This document shows positions 1-22,240 of a DNA stretch of 64,000 bases, one piece after another. The position numbers and the translations under genes were made by a program. How positions within the stretch are numbered: the stretch's first letter is position 1; each line of letters starts with the position of its first letter. The DNA comes from Escherichia coli (lineage in GTDB: Bacteria > Pseudomonadota > Gammaproteobacteria > Enterobacterales > Enterobacteriaceae): assembly GCF_024502345.1 (NCBI RefSeq), contig NZ_JALDNN010000001.1, one strand, 5' to 3'. The notes beneath the pieces are model-generated. The model saw only the letters and a list, made by a program, of their open reading frames with translations. It made no database searches and was not told the origin of the DNA.

Positions 1-92
1 AGGCCTGATAAGACGCGTCAGCGTCGCATCAGGCAACCGGCTCGGGCGTTAGATGTCGGATGCGGCGTGACCGCCTTATCCGACCTACGGGG
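1..92. repeat. REP/BIME-like palindromic units downstream of eco
   Basis: Two GC-rich imperfect palindromes of the 'gcctgatgcgacgctgacgcgtcttatcaggcct' / 'gccggatgcggcgtg..ccttatccggcctac' type typical of enterobacterial REP elements. Confidence 0.6.
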
Positions 93-111
93 TGACGCAC
101 TTCACAGCAGT

Positions 112-600
112 TTAGCGAACTACCGCGTTGTCAATTTTCTCTTCCGCCTTCCAGACGCGGTACTTCACATCTACATTGTCTGGCGTATACACCACGATCG
201 GCAGCTTGCTGTTGTAACGCAGCATTCCAGCATCGCCCAGATACGCGGTGACAAATTTCTTCTCTTTCTTGCCATCCGGGCAGGCCATCATCGTGGAAAC
301 CGGCGAGCTAACTTTATCAAAGACATAATAATCATAGCCCCAGCCTTCCAGCGTTTTGCTTTCCAGCTTCCCGCCGAGACGATGCAAATTGCAATCGACT
401 TCCAGCGTCTGACCGATTAACAGTTCTACTTTCAGGGTAGATTCATCTTCTTGCGGGGTTAACTGAATCACCTGACGCTTCATGCCTTTTTCAGCTTGTG
501 GATAAGGCGCGATTTTTTCCAGTGGCTGGACGCTCTCTGCCGCCCAGGCGGAAGTGGTGGCGAAAGCGGCAAACAATACTGCAGGTAGAATGGTCTTCAT
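112..600 (-). CDS. eco: ecotin, periplasmic serine protease inhibitor
   Basis: 162 aa ORF with signal peptide [20 protein letters not shown]; sequence recognised as ecotin. Confidence 0.95.
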
Positions 601-877
601 TTTTTGCTTTCCTTCTTCATTTATAGGTTTGCACCGATGATGTCGCTGAAGGTTAACATATTCATCAGATTTATTAATTTGCTTTATGAATAACTTAAAG
701 AATATTCAGACAATTTTACCTGCTCTTTTAGTGTTAAATTCTGATGAGAGAGCAAAACAGCAGAAATATCTCTGGTGAATTAATCGCTATATAAATATAT
801 TTATAACCATTTGAAATGTGAGCAAAAGCCCGTTTTTGCCACGCTTCCCGCCACTCTTTTGATCCTGCTACAGGTTT

Positions 878-893
878 TACCTCGATCGGGGTA
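878..893. promoter_or_regulatory. Candidate NarP/NarL 7-2-7 heptamer pair in napF control region
   Basis: tacctcg-at-cggggta inverted heptamers (TACYYMT type) about 115 bp upstream of napF start; matches recalled architecture of the napF promoter. Confidence 0.5.
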
Positions 894-1006
894 TGCATCT
901 TTGACACATCCTTTAATATCTTAGCGGCTATAAAAATGGCTTATTAATTATGCGGTTTATTTGGTCGCTCTCAATTTTCAGAGCGCGTTAATGATGGAAG
1001 GTCAAT

Positions 1007-1501
1007 GTGAAGATTGATGCATCCCGTCGGGGCATACTCACTGGTCGCTGGCGCAAAGCCAGTAACGGTATCCGTCCGCCCTGGTCCGGTGATGAATCTC
1101 ATTTTCTGACCCATTGCACCCGCTGCGACGCCTGTATTAATGCTTGTGAAAACAACATTCTGCAACGCGGCGCGGGCGGCTATCCGAGCGTTAATTTCAA
1201 AAATAACGAGTGCAGCTTCTGTTACGCCTGCGCGCAGGCTTGCCCCGAATCGCTATTTTCTCCGCGCCACACCAGGGCCTGGGATTTGCAGTTCACCATT
1301 GGGGACGCGTGCCTGGCGTATCAGTCAGTTGAATGCCGCCGCTGTCAGGATAGCTGTGAGCCAATGGCAATTATCTTTCGCCCGACGCTCTCCGGGATCT
1401 ACCAGCCGCAACTTAATAGCCAACTTTGCAACGGATGTGGAGCATGTGCAGCCAGCTGTCCGGTATCAGCCATAACTGCGGAGTATCTCCATGCACACTA
1501 A
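1007..1501 (+). CDS. napF: ferredoxin-type protein NapF (4Fe-4S clusters)
   Basis: 164 aa, multiple CxxCxxCxxxCP motifs; first gene of nap operon. Confidence 0.95.
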   Translation: MKIDASRRGILTGRWRKASNGIRPPWSGDESHFLTHCTRCDACINACENNILQRGAGGYPSVNFKNNECSFCYACAQACPESLFSPRHTRAWDLQFTIGDACLAYQSVECRRCQDSCEPMAIIFRPTLSGIYQPQLNSQLCNGCGACAASCPVSAITAEYLHAH

Positions 1502-1754
1502 CTGGCAAGTTTGCAGCCTGGTCGTGCAGGCCAAAAGCGAACGAATTTCAGACATCAGCACCCAACTGAACGCCTTTCCCGGCTGTGAAGTTGCTGTCAG
1601 CGACGCGCCGAGCGGTCAGTTGATTGTGGTGGTGGAAGCAGAAGACAGCGAAACGCTGATCCAAACCATTGAGTCAGTACGCAACGTAGAGGGCGTGCTG
1701 GCGGTGTCGCTGGTTTATCACCAGCAGGAAGAGCAAGGTGAGGAAACACCATGA
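1491..1754 (+). CDS. napD: NapA chaperone NapD
   Basis: 87 aa ORF overlapping napF stop and napA start; recognised sequence. Confidence 0.9.
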
Positions 1755-4237
1755 AACTCAGTCGTCGTAGCTTTATGAAAGCTAACGCCGTTGCGGCCGC
1801 TGCGGCGGCTGCCGGTCTCAGCGTGCCGGGCGTTGCCCGCGCCGTTGTTGGTCAGCAGGAAGCCATCAAATGGGATAAAGCGCCGTGCCGTTTCTGCGGT
1901 ACTGGTTGCGGCGTTCTGGTCGGAACGCAGCAGGGGCGTGTGGTGGCCTGTCAGGGCGACCCGGACGCACCGGTTAACCGTGGCCTGAACTGCATTAAGG
2001 GCTATTTCCTGCCCAAGATCATGTACGGTAAAGACCGTTTGACGCAGCCGCTGCTGCGTATGAAAAACGGTAAATATGACAAAGAAGGCGAATTTACCCC
2101 AATCACCTGGGATCAGGCCTTCGATGTGATGGAAGAGAAATTCAAAACCGCCCTGAAAGAAAAAGGGCCGGAATCGATCGGTATGTTCGGTTCTGGTCAG
2201 TGGACTATCTGGGAAGGTTATGCCGCGTCCAAGCTGTTTAAAGCGGGCTTCCGTTCGAACAACATCGACCCGAACGCGCGTCACTGTATGGCGTCGGCAG
2301 TAGTTGGCTTTATGCGTACCTTTGGTATGGATGAGCCGATGGGCTGCTATGACGACATCGAGCAGGCTGACGCGTTTGTGCTGTGGGGCGCAAACATGGC
2401 GGAGATGCACCCGATCCTCTGGTCACGCATCACTAACCGTCGTCTCTCTAACCAGGACGTCACCGTGGCGGTGCTTTCAACCTACCAGCATCGTAGCTTC
2501 GAGCTGGCGGATAACGGCATCATCTTTACGCCACAGTCTGACCTGGTGATCCTGAACTACATCGCCAACTATATCATTCAAAACAATGCGATAAATCAGG
2601 ACTTCTTCAGCAAACACGTTAACCTGCGCAAAGGGGCGACGGACATCGGCTACGGTTTACGTCCGACCCATCCGCTGGAAAAAGCAGCGAAGAATCCGGG
2701 TTCTGACGCCTCCGAACCGATGAGCTTTGAAGATTACAAAGCCTTCGTTGCTGAGTATACGCTGGAAAAAACCGCTGAAATGACCGGCGTGCCGAAAGAC
2801 CAGTTAGAACAACTGGCGCAGCTGTATGCCGATCCGAACAAGAAAGTCATATCCTACTGGACGATGGGCTTCAACCAGCATACCCGTGGTGTGTGGGCCA
2901 ACAACCTGGTCTACAACCTGCACCTGCTGACCGGCAAAATTTCCCAGCCGGGTTGCGGTCCGTTCTCCCTGACCGGGCAGCCTTCCGCGTGTGGTACTGC
3001 GCGTGAAGTGGGCACCTTTGCTCACCGTCTGCCTGCGGACATGGTGGTAACTAACGAGAAACATCGTGATATCTGCGAGAAGAAGTGGAATATCCCGAGC
3101 GGCACCATTCCGGCGAAAATCGGTCTGCATGCGGTAGCACAAGACCGTGCGCTGAAAGACGGCAAGCTGAATGTTTACTGGACCATGTGTACCAACAACA
3201 TGCAGGCCGGGCCGAACATCAATGAAGAGCGTATGCCGGGCTGGCGCGATCCGCGCAACTTCATCATCGTCTCCGATCCGTATCCGACAGTCAGTGCGCT
3301 GGCCGCCGACTTGATCCTGCCGACCGCAATGTGGGTAGAGAAAGAGGGCGCTTACGGTAACGCCGAACGCCGTACTCAGTTCTGGCGTCAGCAGGTACAG
3401 GCGCCAGGCGAAGCGAAATCGGATCTCTGGCAGTTAGTCCAGTTCTCCCGCCGCTTCAAAACTGAAGAAGTATGGCCGGAAGAGCTGCTGGCGAAGAAAC
3501 CGGAACTGCGTGGCAAAACGCTGTACGAAGTTCTGTATGCCACCCCCGAAGTGAGCAAATTCCCGGTATCCGAACTGGCGGAAGATCAGCTGAACGATGA
3601 ATCCCGCGAGCTGGGCTTCTATCTGCAAAAAGGGCTGTTCGAAGAGTACGCATGGTTTGGTCGCGGTCACGGTCACGATCTCGCGCCGTTCGATGACTAC
3701 CACAAAGCGCGCGGTCTGCGCTGGCCGGTGGTGAACGGTAAAGAAACGCAGTGGCGTTACAGCGAAGGTAACGACCCGTACGTGAAAGCGGGCGAAGGCT
3801 ATAAGTTCTACGGTAAACCGGATGGTAAAGCGGTGATCTTCGCGCTGCCGTTCGAACCGGCGGCGGAAGCACCGGATGAAGAGTACGACCTGTGGCTCTC
3901 TACCGGACGCGTCCTGGAGCACTGGCACACCGGCAGTATGACTCGCCGTGTGCCGGAACTGCACCGTGCCTTCCCGGAAGCGGTCCTGTTTATTCACCCG
4001 CTGGATGCGAAAGCGCGCGATCTGCGCCGTGGCGACAAAGTGAAAGTGGTTTCTCGCCGTGGCGAAGTGATCTCGATTGTCGAAACGCGCGGTCGTAACC
4101 GTCCGCCGCAGGGCCTGGTGTACATGCCGTTCTTCGACGCCGCACAGCTGGTTAACAAACTAACGCTGGACGCGACCGATCCGCTCTCGAAAGAGACGGA
4201 CTTCAAGAAGTGCGCGGTCAAACTGGAGAAGGTGTAA
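1751..4237 (+). CDS. napA: periplasmic nitrate reductase catalytic subunit NapA (Tat signal, molybdopterin)
   Basis: 828 aa; N-terminal twin-arginine motif SRRSFMKA; CxxCxxxC cluster; recognised. Confidence 0.97.
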
Positions 4238-4243
4238 GCCATT

Positions 4244-4939
4244 ATGTCCCGGTCAGCGAAACCTCAAAATGGTCGCCGCCGCTTTCTGCGCGATGTCGTT
4301 CGCACAGCAGGCGGGCTGGCTGCCGTGGGTGTGGCGCTGGGGTTACAACAGCAAACCGCACGCGCATCTGGCGTGCGGTTGCGCCCGCCCGGAGCCATAA
4401 ACGAGAACGCCTTTGCCAGTGCCTGTGTGCGTTGCGGTCAGTGTGTTCAGGCTTGCCCTTACGACACCTTAAAACTGGCGACGCTGGCCTCTGGCCTGTC
4501 GGCGGGCACGCCATATTTTGTCGCACGGGATATTCCTTGCGAAATGTGTGAGGACATTCCGTGCGCCAAAGTGTGCCCGAGCGGTGCGCTGGATCGTGAG
4601 ATTGAATCGATCGACGACGCGCGGATGGGGCTGGCGGTACTGGTGGACCAGGAAAACTGTCTCAACTTTCAGGGGCTGCGCTGCGATGTTTGTTATCGCG
4701 AATGCCCGAAAATTGATGAGGCCATCACCCTGGAGCTGGAGCGCAACACGCGTACCGGTAAGCACGCCCGCTTTCTGCCGACGGTTCACAGCGACGCCTG
4801 TACCGGTTGCGGTAAGTGCGAAAAAGTATGCGTGCTGGAACAACCGGCAATCAAGGTGTTACCGCTGTCACTGGCGAAAGGGGAGTTAGGTCACCATTAC
4901 CGCTTCGGCTGGCTGGAGGGGAACAATGGCAAATCGTAA
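4244..4939 (+). CDS. napG: ferredoxin-type protein NapG
   Basis: 231 aa, Tat-like signal (RRRFLR), four Cys clusters. Confidence 0.95.
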
Positions 4940-5789
4940 ACGTGACGCCGGGCGCGAGGCGCTGGAGAAAAAAGGCTGGTGGCGCAGTCACCGTTGGCTG
5001 GTGTTACGTCGCCTTTGTCAGTTCTTCGTGCTGGGGATGTTTTTGAGCGGTCCGTGGTTTGGTGTGTGGATCTTGCACGGCAACTACAGCAGTAGCCTGT
5101 TATTCGACACCGTTCCGCTGACCGATCCGCTGATGACGCTGCAAAGTCTTGCCAGTGGTCATCTGCCTGCCACGGTGGCGTTGACCGGTGCGGTGATTAT
5201 CACCGTGCTCTACGCCCTGGCAGGAAAGCGATTATTTTGCAGCTGGGTCTGCCCGCTGAACCCGATTACCGACTTAGCGAACTGGTTACGCAGGCGCTTT
5301 GACCTCAATCAGTCTGCGACGATCCCTCGCCACATTCGCTACGTGCTGTTGGTGGTCATTCTGGTGGGATCTGCCTTAACTGGCACGCTCATCTGGGAAT
5401 GGATCAACCCCGTTTCCCTGATGGGGCGTAGCCTGGTAATGGGCTTCGGCAGCGGCGCGCTGCTTATTCTCGCGCTGTTTTTATTTGATCTACTGGTCGT
5501 TGAACACGGCTGGTGCGGGCACATTTGTCCGGTTGGCGCGCTGTATGGCGTGCTGGGTAGCAAAGGTGTGATTACCGTTGCGGCCAGCGATCGGCAGAAA
5601 TGTAACCGCTGTATGGATTGTTTTCATGTTTGCCCGGAACCGCATGTGCTACGTGCCCCGGTGCTGGATGAACAAAGCCCGGTGCAGGTCACCAGCCGCG
5701 ATTGCATGACGTGCGGTCGCTGCGTGGATGTCTGTTCTGAGGATGTATTTACAATAACTACACGATGGAGTTCGGGAGCGAAATCATGA
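4926..5789 (+). CDS. napH: membrane ferredoxin-type protein NapH
   Basis: 287 aa, TM helices plus C-terminal Cys clusters. Confidence 0.95.
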
Positions 5790-6229
5790 AAAGCCATGAC
5801 CTGAAGAAAGCGCTGTGTCAATGGACGGCGATGCTGGCCCTGGTGGTAAGCGGCGCGGTTTGGGCGGCTAATGGCGTCGATTTTAGCCAGTCGCCGGAAG
5901 TATCCGGGACGCAGGAAGGGGCCATTCGGATGCCAAAAGAGCAGGATCGGATGCCGCTGAACTATGTGAATCAGCCGCCAATGATCCCGCATAGCGTTGA
6001 AGGTTATCAGGTAACGACCAATACCAACCGCTGCTTGCAGTGCCACGGTGTCGAAAGCTATCGCACCACTGGCGCGCCGCGTATCAGTCCTACTCACTTT
6101 ATGGACAGCGACGGCAAAGTGGGCGCGGAAGTGGCTCCGCGTCGTTATTTCTGTCTGCAATGTCACGTACCGCAGGCCGATACCGCGCCAATCGTGGGGA
6201 ATACCTTTACCCCATCAAATACCGAATGA
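5786..6229 (+). CDS. napB: dihaem cytochrome c NapB, with C-terminus altered by a novel joint
   Basis: [13 protein letters not shown]...; two CxxCH haem motifs; the last residues (..TPSNTE) differ from the recalled K-12 C-terminus (..TPSKGYGK). Confidence 0.9.
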   Translation: MKSHDLKKALCQWTAMLALVVSGAVWAANGVDFSQSPEVSGTQEGAIRMPKEQDRMPLNYVNQPPMIPHSVEGYQVTTNTNRCLQCHGVESYRTTGAPRISPTHFMDSDGKVGAEVAPRRYFCLQCHVPQADTAPIVGNTFTPSNTE

Positions 6230-6671
6230 AGTGGACTATCGAAAATTGCAGGAACTGTTCACGCGGATCGCCATCGATAAACATATTCAGCAAAAGCTTG
6301 AACATCCTCACCACCAGCTGGTGGCTACCTACCAGTCATTAAACCGCAAGTATTCAGAATTGCTGGAGGAATACAAAATCCTTCGGCGCTGCTTCTCTGT
6401 TTCCGCTCTTGTTCCTTATACCGACGTATGGACACATAAGCCTGTTCAGTTTTATCCAGGCAAACATCCATGCGAAAAACCTGCCGACATGCTGAAACAG
6501 ATCATTAGCGCCAGCAGCAGACCGGGGGATATCGTTGCCGATTTCTTTATGGGCTCTGGTTCAACTGTGAAAGCTGCAATAGAACTTGGCCGTCGGGCGA
6601 TCGGCGTAGAACTGGAGGCAGACAGGTTTATACAGACCACCGAAGAGGTGGAAAAACTGAAAAAATCATAA
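6220..6671 (+). pseudogene. 5'-truncated N6-adenine/N4-cytosine DNA methyltransferase (C-terminal fragment only)
   Basis: Translation contains HPCEKP then DIVADFFMGSGSTVKAAIELGRRAIGVE (SAM-binding FxGxG block of beta-class MTases); no start codon and no N-terminal DPPY catalytic motif; reading frame begins at the napB joint. Confidence 0.7.
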
Positions 6672-6816
6672 CGATCACCACGCTCCCCCGTTGCTGTGGT
6701 GATCACCATCTTCAGGCACCGGGAATCATCCTTAATTTTTACTTGAACATAAGAGCCCGGTTGCCTGATCCCCTTCAATCACACACAGCGCCATCCGAAC
6801 TATCGGAGGTGAGGCT

Positions 6817-7095
6817 ATGACCAGAATGAGCACCATTTACAGCAGACTTTCATATGGATCAGGAACCACGCTTGCCGGCTGCGGTGTATCAGCGAAGGCA
6901 TATGCCGAAACAGCTAAAACAGCAAAAGAGGTGTCCTGGATGTTGGCCGACAGAATTGCAGGGTTAAGCCTGAGTGACTGGGCAATTATTGTCGGTATCG
7001 CATGCACAGTTATCACCTGTGCAGTGAACTGGTATTACAGGAAAAAGGAAAGGGAGGACCGGCTTAATGGCAATGTCACCAAAGCAGAAGAATAA
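6817..7095 (+). CDS. phage holin
   Basis: 92 aa, hydrophobic helix WAIIVGIACTVITCAVNWYY, charged C-terminus, immediately upstream of endolysin. Confidence 0.7.
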   Translation: MTRMSTIYSRLSYGSGTTLAGCGVSAKAYAETAKTAKEVSWMLADRIAGLSLSDWAIIVGIACTVITCAVNWYYRKKEREDRLNGNVTKAEE

Positions 7096-7615
7096 ACTGA
7101 GCGCAGCGGTCGTTGGGTTAATTCTTGCCGGGGCTTCCGCACCCGTGATTCTCGATCAGTTTCTGGATGAGAAAGAGGGTAACAGCACAACAGCGTACAA
7201 GGACGGCTCTGGTATATGGACCATTTGTCGTGGCGCTACGATGGTTGATGGCAAGCCAGTAGTTCAGGGCATGAAGCTGTCTGCTGAGAAATGTTCCAAG
7301 GTGAACGCCATAGAACGCGACAAGGCGCTGGCGTGGGTCGAGCGAAACATCAAGGTGCCACTGACCGAACCACAGAAAGCCGGGATCGCGTCTTTCTGCC
7401 CATATAACATCGGTCCCGGAAAATGTTTCCCATCTACGTTCTATAAGCGAATAAATGCTGGCGACCGTGAAGGTGCCTGTGAAGCGATCCGCTGGTGGAT
7501 AAAAGACGGTGGTCGCGATTGTCGTCTGACCAAAGGGCAGAAGAACGGTTGCTATGGTCAGGTTGAACGGCGAGACCAGGAAAGCGCGTTGACGTGCTGG
7601 GGGATAGACCAGTGA
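7067..7615 (+). CDS. phage endolysin, lysozyme family with N-terminal signal-anchor (SAR-type)
   Basis: 182 aa; N-terminal hydrophobic [18 protein letters not shown] followed by lysozyme-like body; position between holin and Rz. Confidence 0.8.
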
Positions 7616-8127
7616 GCCTGCGCTATCAGTTCATTGTTATTTTGTTGCTGGTGGCCGTTGCATTCTTCGCGGGTAGTGTATGGAGCAGCCGCGGTTGGGA
7701 AAAGAAGTGGGCCGAGCGTGACAGCGTAGAATCATCGCAAACAGCGAACGCACAGACCGCCGCTCGCATGATTGAACAAGGGCGTATTATTGCCCGTGAT
7801 GAGGCTGTAAAAGATGCACAAGCACAAGCCGCTAAATCCGCTGCCACTGCTGCTGGCCTGTCTGCCACTGTTAACCAGCTGCGTACCGAAGCAACAAAGC
7901 TTGCCACTCGCCTGGACGCCGCAAAGCACACCGCAGATCTTGCCACTGCCGTCAGAAGCAAAACAGCCGGAGCCGACGCCGCAGTGCTCGCCGACATGCT
8001 CGGACGCCTTGCAGAAGAAGCTCGATATTATGCTGAGCGATCTGACGAAAGCTACCGGGCAGGAATGACGTGTGAGCGCATTTACGACTCAGTGAGGCAG
8101 TCAAACAACAACAGGGTTAGAAGATGA
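7594..8127 (+). CDS. i-spanin (Rz-like); true start may be GTG at 7612
   Basis: N-terminal TM ([15 protein letters not shown]), coiled-coil Ala/Gln-rich periplasmic domain; Rz1 nested in +1 frame. Confidence 0.8.
7814..8068 (+). CDS. o-spanin (Rz1-like lipoprotein) nested inside Rz
   Basis: Signal peptide with lipobox LLTSC, proline-rich mature region; entirely embedded in Rz in another frame. Confidence 0.75.
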
Positions 8128-8354
8128 ACGCAGAAAACCTAAGTGAAGCGTATTACCTCAATAACGATATAAAAGAACTACAACTTCAGAAAAGCATACT
8201 GGAAAGTGGTGCCGGACTTGGTGTGACAATCCAGTCTACCTATCAGGATAACGCCTTTCTTGATGCCATACGCCCGCATGCAGTGGCTGAACTTGATCGC
8301 CGTATTGTGGAGAAGAAAAAAAACCTCTCCACTCTGGGTGTTACATTCTCTTAA
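8124..8354 (+). CDS. hypothetical protein, start overlaps Rz stop (ATGA)
   Basis: 76 aa ORF translationally coupled to Rz; no recognisable motif. Confidence 0.45.
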
Positions 8355-8701
8355 ATGAGAACAACAATAAAAGGTTATGTCTGCTTTGCCACATTCTGAG
8401 AGTATGAGTTTTATTTGGTAGTCAATCAGTTACTTTATTGGTTTGCTTTCCGATGGAAGATAGATGTTTCCACAGAAGGGGCAAATTAACGTTATATTGT
8501 TTTTTATTCTCGACAGACTGTGCTTTGACTGGCGGGAGCAATGAGGACAAGTACTTTTCACATGGCGTAAAGTACGCATCTTGATATCTTTGAGTATCGA
8601 CATGTTGATTGTCCTGGTGGGCGGTTAACAACCATACACCACATGTTGGCTAATAGCTTCTTTTATAACCGTTACGATGTAGTCGTTAGCCATAATCAAT
8701 C

Positions 8702-8727
8702 AAGCCTCGCAATAGCGGGGCTTTTTA
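8702..8727 (+). terminator. possible hairpin plus T-run
   Basis: agcctcgc-aata-gcggggct followed by ttttt. Confidence 0.35.
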
Positions 8728-8738
8728 ACAACTGAGGA

Positions 8739-8942
8739 ATGAGCATTACAGTAGTTCTTACAGCTAAGCAGATTGAAGACCTGGCTGCCTTCGCAAAAGA
8801 AGATGGCCAGCCACAATATACCATCACTACCGGAACAATCCCTGAGTTCGAAGCGGATGATGGCGAGGTTATCCCTGAGTACACCGGGCTGATTGCCTAT
8901 TCCGAGTCGCTAGAGCATAGCGTTCTACAGCTCGATAACTAA
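8739..8942 (+). CDS. hypothetical small acidic protein
   Basis: 67 aa, Asp/Glu-rich, SD-like gaggaa upstream; a degenerate copy of its 3' end recurs at 10.8-10.96 kb. Confidence 0.5.
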   Translation: MSITVVLTAKQIEDLAAFAKEDGQPQYTITTGTIPEFEADDGEVIPEYTGLIAYSESLEHSVLQLDN

Positions 8943-8969
8943 CGAATCAACATAACTTTCCATCCGCCA

Positions 8970-9135
8970 TGACACCACAATGCTCGTAGACATGCCAGGA
9001 AGCCTGGCAGAAGAAGCTCGATACCATGCTGAACGCGCTGATGAAAACTACCGAGCAGGAATGACATGTGAGCGGATTTATGAGTCCGTAAAAATACTAA
9101 CAATGAACCGTAGAGGAAAAATAATAGCTCTATAA
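8970..9135 (+). pseudogene. duplicated 3' fragment of the Rz gene
   Basis: 9006-9092 is an imperfect direct repeat of 8011-8097 (gcagaagaagctcgata..gcaggaatgac.tgtgagcg..attta); would encode ..[27 protein letters not shown].. Confidence 0.7.
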
Positions 9136-9514
9136 ATTAAGATGTTGACGGTTTTCGTGGATAAATTTGTGAATTTTTACTATGAAGGAAATACGACTCT
9201 TCCTTGAGTCAAAATCCCTGACAACTTAGGGTGATAGATAAAGGTCTTACGCAGCATGACATAATTTTCGATTTAAGCTATTTAAATTAATTTTTAAGAT
9301 CAAAACCCACTGAGATTTACTTACAAAACTAAACCTTGCTATGTCTGGTTAATCATGCGTTAATGAATGTCTGGTTTGTAACGAATTTATCTGAAGCAGT
9401 CGCTGTAATAATTTTATTCCTTGTTCCTGTTGAGATTTCCTTGTTAGCTTTTCTCTCTGATAAATTTTTTTCGGACCATTCTGCCCAAGGGCTTACTCAA
9501 TAAAGGTAATGTTT

Positions 9515-9727
9515 ATGTCTAATAAAATGACTGGTTTAGTTAAATGGTTTAATCCTGAAAAAGGTTTTGGTTTTATCACTCCAAAAGATGGTAGTAAAGA
9601 TGTGTTTGTTCACTTCTCTGCTATCCAGAGTAATGATTTCAAGACGTTGAATGAGAATCAGGAAGTTGAATTTAGTGTTGAACAGGGACCTAAAGGCCCC
9701 ACGGCAGTTAATGTCGTGGCTGTATAA
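9515..9727 (+). CDS. cold-shock protein (CspA family), prophage-borne
   Basis: 70 aa [23 protein letters not shown]...; long AT-rich 5' leader typical of csp genes. Confidence 0.9.
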
Positions 9728-9931
9728 GGTAACTGTTATTACTAATAATATTCACTTCAGATGTCCGTGTTGCCACGGATCTCAGTACCGAACGTCAAAC
9801 TTTGATGTTACTGAAAAAAATCCTTTCGGAGCAAAATGTATTTTTTGCAAATCAACAATGATTACATTTGATAATATTGCACTGTACATTCGTTCTGGTC
9901 AGTCTTCGTTAGAATTCAGAAAATAAATTTC

Positions 9932-9955
9932 AGGCTCCTTATGGAGCCTTTTTTG
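9932..9955 (+). terminator. rho-independent terminator
   Basis: aggctcc-ttat-ggagcct followed by tttttt. Confidence 0.7.
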
Positions 9956-9999
9956 TATGCTGAACCGACAATCTCTGTAAGAGACATCACGGTAAAATT

Positions 10000-10230
10000 A
10001 TGAAAAAAGTCATCGTTTTTTTTAATGCAGAACCAGCAGTTGTTGTAACCGTAATGAAAGGTATTACTACGATAATGCGTGAGTTTCCCAATGGGGAAAA
10101 AGCACACCTACCCGTGATGTCAGCGGGATTTCCATCTCTGACAGGAGACCATAAAATAGTTTATGTAGCCTCTGATCGTGATGTCAGTTCAGAAGAGATC
10201 CTCGAGGCAGCCTCGAAGCTTTTGAAATGA
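10000..10230 (+). CDS. hypothetical protein
   Basis: 76 aa ORF; weak RBS; no recognisable motif. Confidence 0.35.
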   Translation: MKKVIVFFNAEPAVVVTVMKGITTIMREFPNGEKAHLPVMSAGFPSLTGDHKIVYVASDRDVSSEEILEAASKLLK

Positions 10231-10434
10231 GATCTGGTTGTTTCGTGACCGACCCGGATTTTAGTACAGTGGTTTGTGTGGTCGCGAGCTCTTTTGCATG
10301 AAGATTGTACTGCAAACTATTGATAATTGAGTCTTTCTATTCTATCTTTTAAACATATCAGCGCTTATACAAGTGCTCTACGGGGAATGTAACATGCCTG
10401 GCGTTGATACGTTAGAGATCAAGAGAGGTAAACA

Positions 10435-10608
10435 ATGAACGTCGAAGATTTAAAAAGAAAAACTGAAGCGGATATTTCTGAATTCATCACAAAAAAAATT
10501 ATTGAACTCAAAAAAAAGACAGGAAAAGAAGTTTCCGATATCCAGTTTAATGCTCGTGAAAAAATGACTGGGCTTGAAAGCTATGATATTAAAATCACAT
10601 TAATCTAA
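10435..10608 (+). CDS. GnsA/GnsB-family small protein
   Basis: 57 aa MNVEDLKRKTEADISEFITKKIIELKKKTGKEVSDIQFNAREKMTGLESYDIKITLI; strong similarity to recalled GnsA/GnsB; below the 60-aa cutoff of the ORF track. Confidence 0.8.
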   Translation: MNVEDLKRKTEADISEFITKKIIELKKKTGKEVSDIQFNAREKMTGLESYDIKITLI

Positions 10609-10632
10609 TTGTTATAAGACTCAGTTCGAGTG

Positions 10633-10667
10633 AAAAAGCATTATCTTGAAAGGTAATGCTTTTTTAT
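10633..10667 (+). terminator. rho-independent terminator after gns-like gene
   Basis: aaagcatta-tcttgaaagg-taatgcttt followed by tttatttc. Confidence 0.7.
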
Positions 10668-10760
10668 TTCTGTCATAAAATTTAGAACGTTGTCAAAGCC
10701 TTCACTTCTAACCACAGATTTTCTGCTTACCTTTTAACGGGTCCTCCTTGACGATTCTGA

Positions 10761-10964
10761 CCATCGAGGGGCAGCAGCGGCGCGGGATTTGGAGCATTTT
10801 TGATTCTTCACGCAACCATTTCAGCATTTGATGCTGATGACGGAACACTATCCCCGAATACACTGGGTTTGTTGCATTCTCTGATTCAAAAGAACACGGT
10901 GTGCTTCAACTTGGCTGAGCAGGCATTACAGCAGACATTCACTGAGTGCCTGCGACAAAGTTAA
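10761..10964 (+). pseudogene. start-less 3' remnant related to the 8739-8942 gene
   Basis: Frame encodes ..FDADDGTLSPNTLGLL.. resembling ..FEADDGEVIPEYTGLI.. of the 8739 ORF; no in-frame start codon after the upstream stop. Confidence 0.45.
10921..10958 (+). repeat. ~35-bp boundary repeat, copy 1
   Basis: cattacagcagacattcactgagtgcctgcgacaa; near-identical copy at 11311-11343. Confidence 0.6.
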
Positions 10965-11049
10965 ATGGCATCAAGCATGCGATGATGATTGATTAATAAT
11001 TGAGCTATGCATGGTATAATAAGCCCCATTCATTGAAAGGTTAACCACC

Positions 11050-11214
11050 ATGTCATTTTTCGATTATGCAATGCAGCGTGTTGGGCTTGCAGCCAATACG
11101 ACTGTCATGTGCCCGATATGCGGACATAAATCCACACACTCGACCACGAAAGTACGCCAACAACAGGCGTTACTTTGCCCTAAATGTAAATCGCTGTTTG
11201 TCATTCACAGATAA
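11050..11214 (+). CDS. small zinc-ribbon protein (CxxC...CxxC)
   Basis: 54 aa MSFFDYAMQRVGLAANTTVMCPICGH...LCPKCKSLFVIHR; upstream -10 tataat at ~11015; two terminators downstream. Confidence 0.6.
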   Translation: MSFFDYAMQRVGLAANTTVMCPICGHKSTHSTTKVRQQQALLCPKCKSLFVIHR

Positions 11215-11232
11215 CATGCGACCTGCTGAATA

Positions 11233-11257
11233 TAACCGCCTACGGGCGGTTTTTTAT
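11233..11257 (+). terminator. rho-independent terminator
   Basis: accgcctacgggcggt followed by tttttt. Confidence 0.75.
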
Positions 11258-11268
11258 TGCCATCACAA

Positions 11269-11293
11269 AGGCCACTTTCGAGTGGCTTTTTTA
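11269..11293 (+). terminator. second rho-independent terminator
   Basis: gccactttcgagtggc followed by ttttttaa. Confidence 0.65.
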
Positions 11294-11310
11294 ATGGTCA
11301 TCACGACGGG

Positions 11311-11343
11311 TATTACAGCAGGAATTACTGAGTGCCTGCGATA
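11311..11343 (+). repeat. ~35-bp boundary repeat, copy 2
   Basis: tattacagcaggaattactgagtgcctgcgataat; matches 10921-10958. Confidence 0.6.
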
Positions 11344-11370
11344 ATGCTCAATATTTTTATCGGAGTGAAT

Positions 11371-11559
11371 ATGCCACCGCGCACACCGAAGGCCGGCCTG
11401 AAAGGGGCGATACAAAAAAGGGAAAAAATGAAAAGACATAAGCGAAATAAAAAAGCCACCACATCTGCAAATGTGATGGCTGGCATTCGGATTAATTCAG
11501 GTTGGCTGAATAAGTTAGCCGCAGATATTACTAAAATAATTAATGAAGCATGTCCCTAA
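11371..11559 (+). CDS. hypothetical small basic protein
   Basis: 62 aa from ATG with ggag SD; Lys/Arg-rich; no known motif. Confidence 0.3.
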   Translation: MPPRTPKAGLKGAIQKREKMKRHKRNKKATTSANVMAGIRINSGWLNKLAADITKIINEACP

Positions 11560-11956
11560 TCTCATCTGAGATATCTCTTGGCCCTGCAGGCTGAGGCGCA
11601 ACCAACCGGGTCGGAAGTCTCTCGAAGAAACCACCACCACCATGATGATGAAAACCCCGGTTATTTTTATAACTATTGAAGTTACTGTCGGTAGTGAGAA
11701 GGATGTTGCACTGGTGCGAGCAGTCAACAACAACGACATCACCTGCATTCAGGTGCATTCGTTTGTGAAGAAATTGCATAAGTCTCCTTATCAAGAGGCA
11801 ATCAGCACTCCTCTCAAGGCTGGTACGCCAACGTCCCACCGCTGACGGGCTGAGCCATTACCTTACCCAGACTCAACGATAAGTAACATCCTGATATTCA
11901 GACAGTAACTGTAATCGATAATGCTGAAGAATAGGCAGTAAATACAGGTGACTGAT

Positions 11957-13109: not shown

Positions 13110-13252
13110 TACATTCTCCTTGTATTGAATAGGAATAATCATAGTCGGAGCGAATGGTCGAAGCCATTAAAAAAATGGGTCCTTCCTGAGACTTTTGTAA
13201 GGCACGGGCATTGCGCGCCGCGGTGTTTTCCTAGCTACAACTTTCAGATTTG

Positions 13253-13402
13253 TGTCCCATGTCCCACCTCTGGCGATCATTACGGACACCTCGCCAGCTC
13301 TGGCTATTCCAGTTTATTCCAGTGGGACATTCTGGTGGGACATGGCAAAAATGTCCCAGGCGAATGTCCCACCCCAGAAAATGTCCCAGGTGATGTCCCA
13401 TG
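13253..13402. repeat. Cluster of eight TGTCCCA/TGGGACA heptamer repeats immediately upstream of terminase small subunit
   Basis: Copies at 13253, 13260, 13323(rc), 13336(rc), 13352, 13365, 13382, 13394; the last overlaps the terS ATG. Confidence 0.7.
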
Positions 13403-13969
13403 ACCACGATGAACCAGAGTCAGTACGCACAACATTCAGGTGTGGATCGCAAAACAATTGGTCGGTGGATTAAAGCCGGGCGCTTCATTGTGATGGACGG
13501 AGACCTGATTGACGTAGAGGCCAGCGATGCGGCATTGAAGAAAAACCGCGATGGCAAAGACCCGCGCGCCTCGAACGCGAAGAAAAAGAAAACTCCCGTC
13601 GTTAGCGATAACGATGATGACGGTGATGAAATCAATAAAACTGTCCGCCAGATAATGCTCACTGAAGGGGCAGATCTTTCGAGAGAGGAAGCGGGACGTA
13701 TCCGCGAGAATTACATGGCCCTGCAGGCAAAGCTGCAGTATGAAAAAGACAGCGGCCAGCTTATTGAGCTGACAGCAGCCGAGGAGGTTTTATTCAACGC
13801 CTTTCGCCAACAGCGTGATGCCTGGCTTAACTGGCCGTCCAGGGTGGCGCCGCTAATGGCTGCTGATCTGGATGTACCGGCGGACAGGATGACAGAGGTG
13901 CTGATTGAACATGTCCACAAACACATCTCAGTCCTCGGAGAGCCAGAGTTTAACCCGGCAGAAGATTGA
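13400..13969 (+). CDS. terminase small subunit (Nu1-like, N-terminal HTH)
   Basis: 189 aa; N-terminal ..VDRKTIGRWIKAGRF.. winged-helix pattern as in lambda Nu1; followed by large terminase. Confidence 0.7.
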   Translation: MTTMNQSQYAQHSGVDRKTIGRWIKAGRFIVMDGDLIDVEASDAALKKNRDGKDPRASNAKKKKTPVVSDNDDDGDEINKTVRQIMLTEGADLSREEAGRIRENYMALQAKLQYEKDSGQLIELTAAEEVLFNAFRQQRDAWLNWPSRVAPLMAADLDVPADRMTEVLIEHVHKHISVLGEPEFNPAED

Positions 13970-16034
13970 GCGTCTTGAATTAAGCGTCCGCAAAGGCTGG
14001 ACACCCCCGCCGCGTATCAGTGTGCCGCAGTGGGCAGATGACTATCGTAAGCTGGCAAAAGAGGCTGGGAGCACTTCGGGAAACTGGGAAACATCGACGG
14101 TAGAAATTGCCCGCGGACCGATGCTTGCCGCGACGGAGTCCGGGGTTCATATCATCACTGTAATGTGCTGTACCCAGTTGATGAAGACAGCACTGCTGGA
14201 AAACCTTTTTGGCTATTTTGCCCACCTCGATCCTTGTCCGATACTGCTGCTGCAGCCGAAAGAAGAAGCCGCTGAACAGTTTTCGAAAGAGCGTATTAGC
14301 CCGCTGGTAAGGGTGACGCCGGTACTGCGTAAAATCATCGGTGATTCGAAACAGAAAAGCTCGAAAGAAACCATTCTTTACAAGGCATTCACTGGCGGAT
14401 TTCTGGCGCTGGCGGGTGCTGGTAGCCCTGATAACCTTGCGCGTCGTCCGATTCGTGTCCTGCTGGCGGATGAAGTGGACAAGTACCCGATAACCCGCGA
14501 AGGCGATCCAATTGCGCTGGCCGAAGAGCGTACAGCGACATTTGGCCTGACCTGGCTGTCTGTACGCGCCTGTTCGCCGACGGTGGAGGATGAGAGCCGC
14601 ATTGCTGACAGCTACGCCGACTCCGATCAGCGCCGGGCATCTGTGGTTTGCCCGCACTGTGGCCACCGCCAGTTCCCCGACTTTTTCAAACACGTTCAGT
14701 GGCCGAAAGAGGGAGATAAACACCTGACTAAATCGGCGATGCTCTATTGCGAATGCTGTGGTAGTGGCTGGTCCGAAGGACAGCGCCTCAGAGCTCTGCA
14801 CACTATTCGATGGCATCAGACGCGCCCATTTGAGTGCTGCGGGGAGCGGCACTCACCGCTGATGGATTATGACCTTGCCTGGCGGGCGGCAGACGAGGGC
14901 AGCGTTGAAAAGGTCTGGCAATGGTCAGAGTCGGAACGGCATGCGGTCTATCGCGCAATCTGCCCCTCCTGTGGAAAGGAGGCAGTCGATAACCACCACG
15001 CGGGGTACCAGGCATCCAAGCTTTTCAGCCCCTGGCAAAAAGATAAGCCGTCGGATATTGCGAAAAAATATATCGATGCGAAGGGCGATCCGGATAAGGA
15101 ACAGGCGTGGTGGAATACCCAGATGGGGCTTCCGCACCGACCTAATCATGGGAAACAGCTCCCTGTTGATGTTCTGCTGGCGCGCCGGGAAATATTTCCG
15201 GCCGTCGTTCCGGACGGGGTGGCATTGTTAACAGCTGGAGTTGATACCCAGGACGATCGCTTCGAAATTACGATCACCGGCTGGGGGAGAGATGAAGAAT
15301 CGTGGTCGGTCGCGCATGACGTTATTTATGGTGACCTTGAGACGGAAGAACCCTGGAAGCGACTGGATGCATACCTGAAACAGATCTGGCGACGTGGTGA
15401 CGGGCGCGGCCTGAATATCATGGCAACGTGCATGGACTCCGGTGGCCACCATACGCAGAAGGTATACGAATTCGCCAAAGAGCGTCTTGGCCGTCGTGTC
15501 TGGGCAATTAAGGGGGAGTCTGCACAGGGAGGTAAACGCAATCCTGTCTGGCCGACCAAACGACCATCATCGAAAAGCAAAGCCAGTTTCCGCCCTGTCA
15601 TTCTGGGGGTTAACTCAGCGAAAGACGTGATACGCGGTCGCCTGCATCTTGAGCCACCCAAACCTGGCGCCGCCGCTGCGGGTTATATGCATTTTCCTGA
15701 CGATCGCGATCTCGGGTACTTCAATCAGCTGCTGGCGGAGCGACTGGTTTACAAAGTCATTTCCGGGCAGCGGTACAGTATCTGGGAAGCAATACCAGGA
15801 CGAGCTAACGAAGCGCTTGACTGCCTCGTTTACAGCTATGCCGCGCTGTGCGGTCTCAAACATATGGGGTTAAAACTCAACGTCCGGGCCGCCAACCTCG
15901 AAGCCGATCCGGATAAGTTCCTGCCAGCGCCAGTTGGACAGGAAGAAAAAATCAATTACGAGCTGCCGGGTGCGGTTATTGAAGAACCAGCGCCGGTCAA
16001 ACGTAAGCGAATATCGCAACTCCTGCCGAAATAA
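13905..16034 (+). CDS. terminase large subunit (lambda gpA-like)
   Basis: 709 aa, position and size; overlaps terS 3' end as in lambda Nu1/A. Confidence 0.8.
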   Translation: MNMSTNTSQSSESQSLTRQKIERLELSVRKGWTPPPRISVPQWADDYRKLAKEAGSTSGNWETSTVEIARGPMLAATESGVHIITVMCCTQLMKTALLENLFGYFAHLDPCPILLLQPKEEAAEQFSKERISPLVRVTPVLRKIIGDSKQKSSKETILYKAFTGGFLALAGAGSPDNLARRPIRVLLADEVDKYPITREGDPIALAEERTATFGLTWLSVRACSPTVEDESRIADSYADSDQRRASVVCPHCGHRQFPDFFKHVQWPKEGDKHLTKSAMLYCECCGSGWSEGQRLRALHTIRWHQTRPFECCGERHSPLMDYDLAWRAADEGSVEKVWQWSESERHAVYRAICPSCGKEAVDNHHAGYQASKLFSPWQKDKPSDIAKKYIDAKGDPDKEQAWWNTQMGLPHRPNHGKQLPVDVLLARREIFPAVVPDGVALLTAGVDTQDDRFEITITGWGRDEESWSVAHDVIYGDLETEEPWKRLDAYLKQIWRRGDGRGLNIMATCMDSGGHHTQKVYEFAKERLGRRVWAIKGESAQGGKRNPVWPTKRPSSKSKASFRPVILGVNSAKDVIRGRLHLEPPKPGAAAAGYMHFPDDRDLGYFNQLLAERLVYKVISGQRYSIWEAIPGRANEALDCLVYSYAALCGLKHMGLKLNVRAANLEADPDKFLPAPVGQEEKINYELPGAVIEEPAPVKRKRISQLLPK

Positions 16035-16042
16035 GGAAAATC

Positions 16043-16306
16043 ATGTTCAACCGGAACACCAGCCTGCTTGCCGGCGCAATGACTGACGATCAGCTCAGGG
16101 ATGCGCTTGCGAAAGCTCAGCAGGCGTACATTGATTTAGCAACCGGGAGCCACGGTGTTTCGTTTTCCTATACGCAGGGAGACGGGACGCGATCAGTGTC
16201 CTATCAGCAAAGCACCCTGGCTGATCTGCTGGCCCTGATTCAACTTCTGCAGGCGCAACTGGGGATTATCTCTCGTCCCCGGAAACCAGCGAGGTTTAGA
16301 TTCTGA
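16043..16306 (+). CDS. head-tail joining protein (gpW-like)
   Basis: 87 aa, position between terminase and portal, C-terminal ..RPRKPARFRF. Confidence 0.6.
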   Translation: MFNRNTSLLAGAMTDDQLRDALAKAQQAYIDLATGSHGVSFSYTQGDGTRSVSYQQSTLADLLALIQLLQAQLGIISRPRKPARFRF

Positions 16307-17943
16307 TGAATAAAGTACAGATACTGGGCTCTGATGGGCAGCCGTTGCGACAGCAGCGTCCCTCTATGCTGGTGGGGGGGAGCCGCGTACCTTATGACGC
16401 AGCTGACTCTTTCAGCGATCAACTGGCGAACTGGCAACCCGCGCTGTGGTCCCCGGACAATGAAATTAACATTTACCGGGATCGCATCGTGTCCCGCGCA
16501 CGCGATCTGGTCCGTAATGACGGCTGGGCAAACGGTGCGGTCACACGTCTGCTGGATAATGCGGTTGGTGCCAACTTCCGCCCCATCATGAAACCCGATT
16601 ACCGTGTTCTCAGAATGATCACCGGAAACAAGGCGTTTGATGCGTCCTGGGCGGAAGAGTACGGAAAAGCACTGGACGGGCACTGGCGGACCTGGAGTAA
16701 CGATCCTGGCCGGTATTGTGATGTTGAACGAAAACTCACCGTGTCGCAGATGTTACGCCTGGGATTTCGTCACAAGCTTATTGACGGGGATGCTCTGGCC
16801 ATTCTCCAGTACAGAACTGACAGGCTTGGTCCCGGAAGAGGGCGTTACGCCACCACGGTACAGATTGTCGATCCTGACCGCCTCAGTAATCCTCAGCAGA
16901 ATTTCGATATGCCAAATGTCCGTGGTGGCGTTGAAATTGATGCGGACGGTGCGCCGGTTGCTTACCACATCAGGGAGGCCCATATCGGTGACTGGTGGAG
17001 CGGGGCTAAAACCATGACGTGGCAGCGTATCCCGCGTGAAACTGACTGGGGCCGCCCGCATGTGGTTCACGATTTTGATCATGAGCGTGGCGCGCAGCAC
17101 CGTGGTAACGGCATCCTGACTCCGGTTATTCAGCGTCTGAAAATGCTGGTGAAGTATGACCAGAGTGAGCTTGAGGCAGCAATTCTTAATGCCATATTTG
17201 CCGCTTACATTGAGTCACCCTATGACCCTGCGATGGTTCAGTCTGCCCTGGGCGAGACCTATGACGAGTCGGAGTTAGGCACTTATCAGGACGGGCGTGT
17301 TGAGTTCCATAACGATCGGCGTCTGACACTTCAGAATGGTGCCCGAATGCCCATTCTTTATCCTGGTGAGAAAATCACGACGGTTAACGCGGCGCGGCCC
17401 TACAGCAATTTTGAAGTCTTCGAATCTGCTGTTCTCCGTAATTTTTCTTCAGGAACAGGGTTGTCCCCACAGCAGGTCACCCAGGACTGGTCTGACGTTA
17501 ACTACAGTTCTGCACGCTCCTCGTTGCTGGAGGCATGGAAAACACTGACTCGCCGCCGGGACGATTTTTCTACCGGCTTCGCTCAGCCCATTCTCACCGC
17601 CTTTGTTGAAGAAGTTCACGACAATGAGGATTTACCCCTGCCCGCAGGCGCACCTGATTTTGTTGACGCCAGAGCCGCGTATTCTCGCGCGCGCTGGATG
17701 GGGCCAGGGCGCGGCTGGGTGGATCCGGTTGCAGAGAAAAAAGGCGCCATTCTTGGTCTGGATGCCGGACTTTCCACCCTCGAGATTGAGGTGGGTGAAA
17801 ACGTCGGTGAAGACTGGGAAGAAGTGCTTGATCAGCGCCAGAGAGAAATTGAGTCATGTCTTAAACGCGGATTACCGCTTCCGAGCTGGGCACAGGCTGA
17901 CCAGTTTGCGAGCCAGACCATTACCGATCCGGAGGAAAAGTGA
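16306..17943 (+). CDS. portal protein (lambda gpB-like)
   Basis: 545 aa, gene order. Confidence 0.8.
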   Translation: MNKVQILGSDGQPLRQQRPSMLVGGSRVPYDAADSFSDQLANWQPALWSPDNEINIYRDRIVSRARDLVRNDGWANGAVTRLLDNAVGANFRPIMKPDYRVLRMITGNKAFDASWAEEYGKALDGHWRTWSNDPGRYCDVERKLTVSQMLRLGFRHKLIDGDALAILQYRTDRLGPGRGRYATTVQIVDPDRLSNPQQNFDMPNVRGGVEIDADGAPVAYHIREAHIGDWWSGAKTMTWQRIPRETDWGRPHVVHDFDHERGAQHRGNGILTPVIQRLKMLVKYDQSELEAAILNAIFAAYIESPYDPAMVQSALGETYDESELGTYQDGRVEFHNDRRLTLQNGARMPILYPGEKITTVNAARPYSNFEVFESAVLRNFSSGTGLSPQQVTQDWSDVNYSSARSSLLEAWKTLTRRRDDFSTGFAQPILTAFVEEVHDNEDLPLPAGAPDFVDARAAYSRARWMGPGRGWVDPVAEKKGAILGLDAGLSTLEIEVGENVGEDWEEVLDQRQREIESCLKRGLPLPSWAQADQFASQTITDPEEK

Positions 17944-18806
17944 ATCTACCCCATCTGGCCCAGCGATTATTTAACACCCCGCTGGCGCTGCACCCGAGTA
18001 AAGCCGAAGTCATCATGGCATCCGTAATGGACCGATTTGGTATCAGTAAAATCGAATCTTCTCTTGCCATGGAGGATGACTGGTACGGATATGACGATAA
18101 CCGGGGACGTGAATCCCGTAGTGATCCGGGTTATGACAATGTGCTGGGTGTCGCCGTCATCCCGATATGCGGAACGCTGGTGCAAAAACTGGGCAGTCTG
18201 CGTCCGTACAGTGGAATGACAGGGTATGACGGCATTCGTCAGGCGTTTCTTACTGCGATGGAAGATCCCGACATTTCGGGCATTTGCCTGGATATCGACT
18301 CACCCGGCGGCGAGGTCGCTGGATGCTTCGATCTGGTTGATGTCATTTACGGCTCCCGGGGGAAAAAGCCTATCCATGCCATTCTGACGGAAAGCGCTTA
18401 TTCCGCTGCGTATGCCATTGCCAGTGCAGCGGACCGGATTTCTGTTCCGCGCACCGGCGGAGTGGGTTCTGTGGGTGTGATCACCATGCACCTTGACTGG
18501 ACGCAGCGGATTAAAGATGACGGTCTTAAAGTTACGATCATCACCTATGGATCCCGCAAGGCTGAAGGTTCGCCGCTGAGAGAGTTGTCAGATGAAGCTC
18601 TGGCCGCCATCCAGCAGGACATTAACACCATGGGCGAATTGTTTGTGAACACTGTTGCCAGAAACCGGGGGATTAGCGCAAAGGTTATAAAAAGTACCCA
18701 GGCCGCCTGTTTTATGGCTGCTGATGGCGTTGAAATTGGACTGGCTGATGAGGTGTGTCCTCCTGACGCTGCGTTCAAAAACTTACTTGAAAAAACAGGA
18801 GCCTGA
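17940..18806 (+). CDS. head maturation protease (S49/ClpP-like)
   Basis: 288 aa, gene order after portal. Confidence 0.7.
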   Translation: MNLPHLAQRLFNTPLALHPSKAEVIMASVMDRFGISKIESSLAMEDDWYGYDDNRGRESRSDPGYDNVLGVAVIPICGTLVQKLGSLRPYSGMTGYDGIRQAFLTAMEDPDISGICLDIDSPGGEVAGCFDLVDVIYGSRGKKPIHAILTESAYSAAYAIASAADRISVPRTGGVGSVGVITMHLDWTQRIKDDGLKVTIITYGSRKAEGSPLRELSDEALAAIQQDINTMGELFVNTVARNRGISAKVIKSTQAACFMAADGVEIGLADEVCPPDAAFKNLLEKTGA

Positions 18807-18807
18807 A

Positions 18808-19802: not shown

Positions 19803-19899
19803 TTTCCCCCACGGCTCTCCTGACGAATGCTTTAACCGGCAGGGGCTGGCTCGTTTAAATTTTTTGCCAGCTGCGGCTGGCACTATCAAGAGACTGAAT

Positions 19900-20949: not shown

Positions 20950-20950
20950 T

Positions 20951-21331: not shown

Positions 21332-21335
21332 TGAC

Positions 21336-22237: not shown

Positions 22238-22240
22238 TCC

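Follow-up and report, generated by a model that had tools for sequence, protein, structure and literature searches.

An abrupt change of content within the nap operon raises the question that is addressed here. In the 64,000-nucleotide stretch of E. coli DNA that was analysed (the window), napC and ccmA-H are missing from their usual place downstream of napB, and napB runs instead into the interior of a phage DNA methyltransferase gene. How did these two genes come to be joined, and what became of the missing ones? The original prediction, made from the sequence alone, had read the fusion as the endpoint of a deletion or of illegitimate recombination. It left out which genes were lost and why phage DNA should be found there, and the phage DNA proves to be the right arm of a prophage integrated at proL, the losses being accounted for by one deletion.

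The joint between napB and a phage methyltransferase gene

The window starts with eco (112-600, minus strand), which is followed by napF, napD, napA, napG and napH, all intact reading frames. The features that surround the joint are as follows.

1007-5789, plus strand: napF, napD, napA, napG and napH, the intact upstream part of the nap operon (open reading frames of 164, 87, 828, 231 and 287 amino acids)
5786-6229, plus strand: napB', 147 codons, in which residues 1-144 are native and the last five residues (KGYGK) are replaced by NTE (alignment)
6219/6220: presumed deletion joint, nucleotide 434 of the 450 of napB against nucleotide 602 of the 1053 of the methyltransferase gene (megablast and three-way alignment)
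6220-6671, plus strand: 3' remnant of a phage beta-class N6A/N4C DNA methyltransferase gene, amino acids 202-350 of 350 (alignment and Pfam)

The segment 5760-7100 was used as a megablast query against 5,426 complete E. coli genomes. Bases 5760-6219 matched napH-napB, with 100% identity in many of these genomes, and bases 6216-7100 matched a prophage DNA methyltransferase, holin and lysozyme region, with 99.9% identity in strain 027_SK3 and 97.7% in Nissle 1917. The napB homology ended at 6219 and the phage homology began at 6216-6220. None of the 5,426 genomes contained both halves of the query together, and an exact 31-mer spanning the joint had no match in the GTDB species genomes or in the JGI metagenomes. 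A three-way alignment of the window with napB-napC and with the full-length methyltransferase gene resolved the breakpoint to one nucleotide position: the switch falls exactly between 6219 and 6220, inside the interval (about 6217-6220) in which the fusion had been predicted.

The same alignment was inspected for microhomology. The overlap at 6216-6219 is an imperfect match only, the window reading CAAA and the phage gene CAAC, so that the single match between the parents is a CAA that sits one base off the joint; the parental bases differ on either side of 6219/6220. Base A6219 is attributed to napB because codon 201 encodes Leu (CTN or TTR) in every methyltransferase allele found in the IMG/VR loci. 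For the same reason, a microhomology hidden in an allele with Ile at position 201 was ruled out. The joint is thus blunt, with no inserted base and no shared base. No IS, IS end or meaningful direct or inverted repeat was detected around it by repeat search and alignment, in line with the prediction that neither an IS element nor a direct repeat would be visible; the napB and phage sequences abut directly.

On the napB side, the window is 99.9% identical to E. coli C 236-04A over 1-6219 and 100% identical over 4347-6219. Residues 1-144 of NapB' are identical to NapB of the WP_000835174 type, including the native N-terminal export region, and both CLQCH haem motifs (CxxCH) are kept, at amino acids 83 and 123 (DNA 6032-6046 and 6152-6166). 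Comparison with the reference NapB confirmed that the protein reads normally up to ..NTFTPS and then terminates as ..PSNTE instead of the native ..PSKGYGK, the TGA stop codon (6227-6229) being derived from phage sequence. No reference napB ending in ..PSNTE was found on record, either by megablast or by exact look-up of the NapB-NTE protein in its 147-aa and 154-aa versions.

On the phage side, the full-length gene of strain 027_SK3 is 1053 nt long and encodes 350 amino acids, with PF01555 (N6_N4_Mtase) extending over residues 29-336. The window keeps nucleotides 602-1053 of this gene, which correspond to two bases of codon 201 and codons 202-350, and the remnant frame is 100% identical at the protein level to amino acids 202-350 of the full-length relative. 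In the Pfam search, the remnant matched only positions 132-215 of the 221 of the PF01555 model (E = 4.6e-24) whereas the full-length relative matched positions 1-215. The catalytic motif IV (DPPY/F), which the full-length relative has as DPPY at amino acids 35-38, does not occur in the window. By contrast, HPCEKP is found in the remnant at 6465-6482 and DIVADFFMGSGST at 6528-6566, and the SAM-binding motif I (FxGxG) is retained as FMGSG (6546-6560). The Pfam span and the alignment thus agree with the prediction that only the C-terminal SAM-binding half, devoid of DPPY, was present.

The predicted lack of a start codon also stands, with a refinement. No in-frame ATG precedes 6489. The frame does contain a GTG at 6231, separated from the napB stop codon by a single base, and a TTG at 6246, but both are without a Shine-Dalgarno sequence. 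The remnant does not form a complete reading frame with a proper start of its own, and no full-length methyltransferase gene with a start codon occupies this position. A mechanically called open reading frame at 6048-6671 begins inside napB and was discarded as spurious. An open reading frame of about 350 amino acids that contains both DPPY and FMGSG, and that starts about 200 codons upstream of the position of the joint, was observed in 79 of the 80 IMG/VR loci kept, which makes the short form a truncation and not a natural variant. Since the catalytic motif is missing, the remnant is a catalytically dead fragment which cannot act as an enzyme. Like the PF01555 enzymes encoded beside the lysis genes of temperate enterobacterial phages, it keeps FMGSG within a 100% identical tail. 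Unlike them, it has lost the N-terminal 201 residues that include the catalytic DPPY, and it is a gene fragment rather than a member of this group of enzymes.

A prophage remnant at tRNA-Pro and the missing segment

Downstream of the methyltransferase remnant, phage genes continue as far as a tRNA gene.

6673-6704, plus strand: stable hairpin in the interval from the methyltransferase remnant to the holin gene; no U-tract follows (hairpin search)
6817-8127, plus strand: intact lysis cassette (PHROGs), made up of the next three genes
6817-7095, plus strand: holin (PHROGs)
7067-7615, plus strand: endolysin (PHROGs)
7594-8127, plus strand: Rz-like spanin (PHROGs)
8128-11900, plus strand: AT-rich accessory block with a cold-shock protein gene at 9509-9727 (no match in two reference prophages)
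11948-33352, plus strand: complete late region with terminase, portal, head, contractile tail, baseplate and tail fibre genes (comparison with ECONIH4)
33532-34656: right-end accessory genes, a DNA invertase (33532-34131, plus strand) and DinI (34174-34656, minus strand)
35202-35278, minus strand: tRNA-Pro(GGG) (proL), which contains the attR core; no second att core occurs in the window
35353-37113, minus strand: yejM, the gene with which the chromosome resumes on the right of the prophage

An intact 45.7-kb prophage of the same family occupies the same site, between yejO and tRNA-Pro, in strain ECONIH4. This prophage is bounded by a 49-bp direct repeat that corresponds to the 3' part of the tRNA, and its integrase gene lies next to yejO. 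The window is colinear with its late half only: 13176-32589 (19.4 kb) is 99.8% identical to the ECONIH4 prophage with zero gaps, and the ECONIH4 methyltransferase homologue (1053 nt, 77% identity) occupies the same place just before the lysis genes. The lysis cassette of the window is 98.7% identical to that of the 027_SK3 prophage. The single att core of the window is located at 35203-35247, inside the tRNA gene, and attL is gone; by synteny with ECONIH4, no integrase gene would be expected between 6220 and 35200. A defective (grounded) prophage is recognised by contiguous phage genes that are flanked by an att core at a tRNA gene on a single side, the integrase side being missing, and the remnant corresponds to this description. 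Beyond yejM the normal E. coli order resumes with yejL, yejK, rplY, radD, rsuA, bcr, yejG, yejFEBA and onward.

In the phage genome collection, no megablast match to the methyltransferase-holin region was obtained, and the structural region matched a Serratia phage only, over 10% of the query at 79% identity. With matches this poor, this type of prophage has no sequenced isolate close enough to give it a name.

The AT-rich block (GC 35-45%) also contains small zinc-finger-like open reading frames, and a partial second copy of the 3' end of the spanin gene (about 7976-8084) is found at 8972-9080 with 82% identity; the block with this copy looks like an insertion of accessory genes by recombination. 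At the right end, the invertase gene, of the Pin/Gin type, adjoins tail-fibre and tail-fibre-assembly genes, with DinI next to it. In ECONIH4, the neighbouring tail-fibre assembly genes point in opposite directions, and this suggests that a host-range segment can be inverted.

Which genes are missing was established by comparison with undeleted chromosomes. In C 236-04A and L26, both prophage-free, the genes follow one another as napB-napC-ccmABCDEFGH-narP-yejO-tRNA-Pro-yejM. Both flanks of the window are colinear with, and in the same orientation as, such genomes (eco-napFDAGHB on the left, tRNA-Pro-yejM-yejL-yejK...yejFEBA on the right). The host side has lost the last 16 nt of napB, napC, ccmABCDEFGH, narP and yejO. 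Comparison with the intact prophage indicates that the phage side has lost attL, the integrase, immunity, replication, Ant and Q genes and the 5' part of the methyltransferase gene. A 29-kb prophage remnant with the lysis, head and tail genes has been kept, anchored at attR. The size of the deletion was taken from the related ECONIH4 prophage, the left arm of the parental prophage itself being deduced from it: mapped onto ECONIH4, the missing interval amounts to 31,680 bp, a figure that counts an IS2 perhaps specific to ECONIH4. Mapping onto the prophage-free C 236-04A assigns about 10.6 kb of the loss to the chromosome, and the prophage share, measured in ECONIH4, is about 19.7 kb.

Taken together, these results make it very likely that the joint was left by a single deletion of about 30 kb that arose by illegitimate recombination in an E. 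coli lysogen. The flanks have kept their order and orientation, as they would after one deletion of this kind; together with the blunt joint, this colinearity supports the reading of the joint as a deletion or illegitimate recombination endpoint. In the ancestor, tRNA-Pro (proL) would have harboured a temperate phage of about 45 kb at its 3' end, between yejO and yejM and about 10.6 kb downstream of napB. Non-homologous joining would have placed nucleotide 434 of napB directly onto nucleotide 602 of the late-region methyltransferase gene, and everything between the two points would have been removed in one event. The remnant would then be unable to excise or to switch on its late genes by itself. 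Such deletions are expected to be favoured because the lost half holds everything that makes the prophage lethal on induction. It is probably for this reason that the deletion spread, the loss of nap-ccm genes being collateral.

The remnant resembles the cryptic prophages DLP12, Rac and Qin, which carry deletions of att, int and regulatory genes: it has likewise lost one att at a tRNA site and, by synteny, integrase, immunity and Q, and has kept lysis and late genes. It differs from them in that 10.6 kb of core chromosome (napC-ccm-narP-yejO) went with the prophage genes and in that its late region is complete and undecayed (99.8%, no indels), so that it looks recent and not ancient. The perfect identity of the methyltransferase remnant protein and the gap-free late region likewise suggest a recent event. 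The kind of event, prophage decay with collateral deletion of host genes, is known, and the napB/methyltransferase instance is new; a literature search for a described deletion between nap or ccm and a prophage returned nothing relevant. This locus therefore provides a nucleotide-exact example of how a functional prophage could be turned into a locked-in remnant in one step, with a price for the host.

Possible routes to the deletion

The two points may have been brought together when a double-strand break was repaired by end-joining, by a topoisomerase-mediated exchange, or by aberrant excision on induction. The joint is free of homology, IS and att sequences, and the sequence thereby excludes homologous recombination between repeats, an IS-mediated adjacent deletion and recombination by an integrase or invertase; it also weighs against classical joining through microhomology. 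Both the alternative end-joining of E. coli (A-EJ, dependent on RecBCD and LigA) and short-homology-independent illegitimate recombination likewise yield a large deletion without long homology. However, A-EJ is reported to use 1-9 nt of microhomology, which its joints carry (bioRxiv 10.1101/605246), whereas the shared bases that it requires are absent at 6219/6220. A zero-base joint is unusual for this pathway, and because of this discrepancy no pathway was assigned. The absence of microhomology also makes this blunt joint informative about how illegitimate recombination proceeds where Ku and LigD are lacking.

Aberrant excision of the Campbell type during prophage induction, the chromosomal reciprocal of the formation of a specialised transducing phage, would give the same deletion, and we regard it as a possible but rather unlikely origin. 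A circle consisting of napB'-napC-ccm-narP-yejO-attL-int...'methyltransferase would have been cut out and then lost. The two endpoints, the first within the prophage and the second in the host flank beside the integrase, reproduce the geometry of lambda gal and bio, and survivors of induction would be enriched because the lost segment holds all the early lethal functions. On the other hand, the resulting sequence is the same as expected from any double-strand-break repair or replication error. Moreover, the circle would be without the terminase genes, which remain in the chromosome at 13400-16034, and presumably without the adjoining packaging site. Since the terminase genes stay behind, the excised circle would not have been a transducing genome; specialised transduction calls for a packaging site in the excised molecule and a packageable size, a combination that this circle would not offer.

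Chromosomal deletions recovered from lambda lysogens (gal-chlD, bio-uvrB-chlA) run from inside the prophage into host genes. The deletion described here shares with them, and with the reciprocal transducing phages, an illegitimate joint between prophage and host and the loss of early killing functions together with host genes. It differs in that it comes from a natural isolate and not from laboratory selection, and in that it concerns another phage family and another attachment site, proL. In contrast to specialised transduction by lambda, no transducing particle is possible, the packaging genes having remained in the chromosome.

It is improbable that the joint arose during assembly, through a chimeric contig made of two unrelated places. 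Its uniqueness would fit such an origin, the joint being found in none of the 5,426 complete genomes, its 31-mer having no exact match and the NapB-NTE protein not being on record; so would the left flank having a 99.9% neighbour when the right flank has none above 99.1%. However, assembler chimeras form at repeats, and both breakpoints lie in unique sequence without shared bases. The flanks are also equally distant from strain L26 (99.2% on the left, 99.1% on the right), as would fit one genomic background. The main argument is that the order and orientation of the flanks are those predicted by a simple deletion, which a random misjoin would rarely produce.

Import of donor DNA by homology-facilitated illegitimate recombination, in which the prophage remnant and the yej region would have been anchored rightward and joined at napB, is more improbable still. 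It would account for a left flank that is 100% identical to C 236-04A over 4347-6219 next to a right flank that differs by about 1.2% throughout. Yet there is no return to near-identity anywhere in the 26.6 kb of the right flank, both flanks are equally diverged from L26, and such discordance is normal mosaicism in E. coli. Finally, an adjacent deletion mediated by an IS, or the action of the phage integrase or of the Pin/Gin-type invertase (33532-34131) on pseudo-sites, is hardly credible: IS rearrangements do occur nearby in other strains (IS26 at yejO in AH21C082, IS2 and IS4321 in ECONIH4) and an invertase gene is present in the remnant, but no IS sequence or IS end is found at the joint, the phage-side breakpoint is not at att, and the parental sites share no central dinucleotide, which serine recombinases need.

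A Chi sequence was noticed on the phage side of the joint.

6311-6324: palindromic double Chi, CCACCAGCTGGTGG, located 92 nt into the phage sequence that was kept

The minus-strand copy, one of three minus-strand Chi sites in the 64 kb, is oriented so as to stop RecBCD coming from the deleted interval. The double Chi is encoded by conserved HHQLV residues of the methyltransferase; it is present in 60 of 70 unique IMG/VR allele sequences and is lacking from whole allele groups. Three independent fusions from the databases (P0064, P0066 and P0080) break 7-20 nt upstream of Chi, as judged from DNA, and a fourth (P0050) breaks likewise upstream of it, as judged from protein sequence. The N-termini that precede the methyltransferase tail in these fusions are Cro-like, DnaD-like or unknown early-region proteins (loci L008, L009 and L011). 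It should be noted that the protein list from which the fusions were drawn is biased towards fragments that keep most of the query. Chi might be a resection barrier that shapes the endpoints of prophage decay, or its position might be a coincidence due to this sampling bias. Chi-limited resection was considered as an explanation of the napB/methyltransferase joint itself and was not adopted, as 91 nt upstream of Chi, which RecBCD would be expected to degrade, are still present and Chi is not invariant.

A further fusion, P0002 from Citrobacter freundii (261 aa, annotated as a YmfL-family regulator), consists of a YmfL N-terminus and a methyltransferase tail that is 98% identical. Its junction lies 5 codons downstream of the napB/methyltransferase joint, and it represents a deletion from the early region to the methyltransferase gene in another genus.

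Consequences for the host and for the remnant

Two features give this locus its main interest: the cytochrome c maturation operon, which is rarely lost, is missing from it, and the joint is clean and homology-free. At least 80% of the 10.6-kb napC-ccm-narP-yejO segment was kept in 5,409 of the 5,426 complete E. coli genomes (99.7%), and its loss is a rare state. The lowest-ranked match to the deleted segment was strain AH21C082 (NZ_CP196261.1), which shows an IS26 rearrangement at yejO. In this blood isolate, IS26 truncates yejO and adjoins the metG side, and only 8% of the query matches, all in the yejO part; this is a different, IS-mediated disruption of the same locus. The intact-prophage reference ECONIH4 has a nap defect of its own, IS4321 splitting napA (locus L004, 3656-7469).

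The product of napB' is nearly complete and carries a 3-codon foreign tail. NapC is the partner that feeds electrons to NapB. Maturation of c-type cytochromes in E. coli depends on the system I Ccm apparatus (PMC12285233). If the missing segment is not present elsewhere in the genome, no c-type cytochrome would be matured, and Nap, Nrf and Tor respiration would be lost as a consequence of the missing Ccm apparatus and NapC; the regulator NarP would be lacking as well. Provided that the segment is truly gone, this strain would be a natural mutant without periplasmic nitrate reductase, formate-dependent nitrite reductase and TMAO reductase, and such a phenotype, with no c-type cytochrome, would bear on fitness in the gut and under anaerobic conditions.

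The deletion might also have fused the two transcription units. The napF operon is FNR-dependent, and RNA polymerase that starts at the napF promoter normally proceeds through napC into ccm. After the deletion, the phage late operon would be left without its own promoter and without Q. The napF operon could now read through napB' and the 590-nt remnant into the holin-endolysin-spanin genes and the late operon, and the domesticated remnant could thereby cause low-level lysis or release of vesicles or particles under anaerobic conditions; we consider this scenario improbable. No terminator-like site was found on the plus strand from the napB stop codon (6229) to the start of the holin gene (6817), for which a strong GGAGGTGA ribosome-binding site is present, and the GTG at 6231 could allow a translational coupling that suppresses Rho polarity. 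Against this scenario, the 590 nt of RNA, probably untranslated, would invite Rho-dependent termination. In addition, NarP is an activator of napF, and its gene has gone with the deleted segment.

Regarding the relatedness of the flanks, the left flank (1-6219) has its 99.9-100% neighbour in the O125ac:H10 strain C 236-04A, and the right flank (35160-61743) has no neighbour above 99.1% among the 5,426 complete genomes. This contrast is compatible either with a poorly sampled source lineage or with a mosaic region. Exact protein look-ups aimed at a nearer relative led to no locus above 98.9% on the right flank, the Bcr allele being too common to discriminate and a phage protein having no entry on record. 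Further to the right, the psuK region (62165-64000) is 85% identical to C 236-04A whereas the preceding 26 kb are 98.8% identical, a step that appears to mark a sharply divergent allele or a recombination boundary. At the opposite end, bases 1-115 of the window match, with 92-94% identity, five tandem units of about 113 nt that lie beyond eco in ECONIH4 (locus L004, 1344-1906), and this unit is best read as a tandem intergenic repeat of variable copy number.
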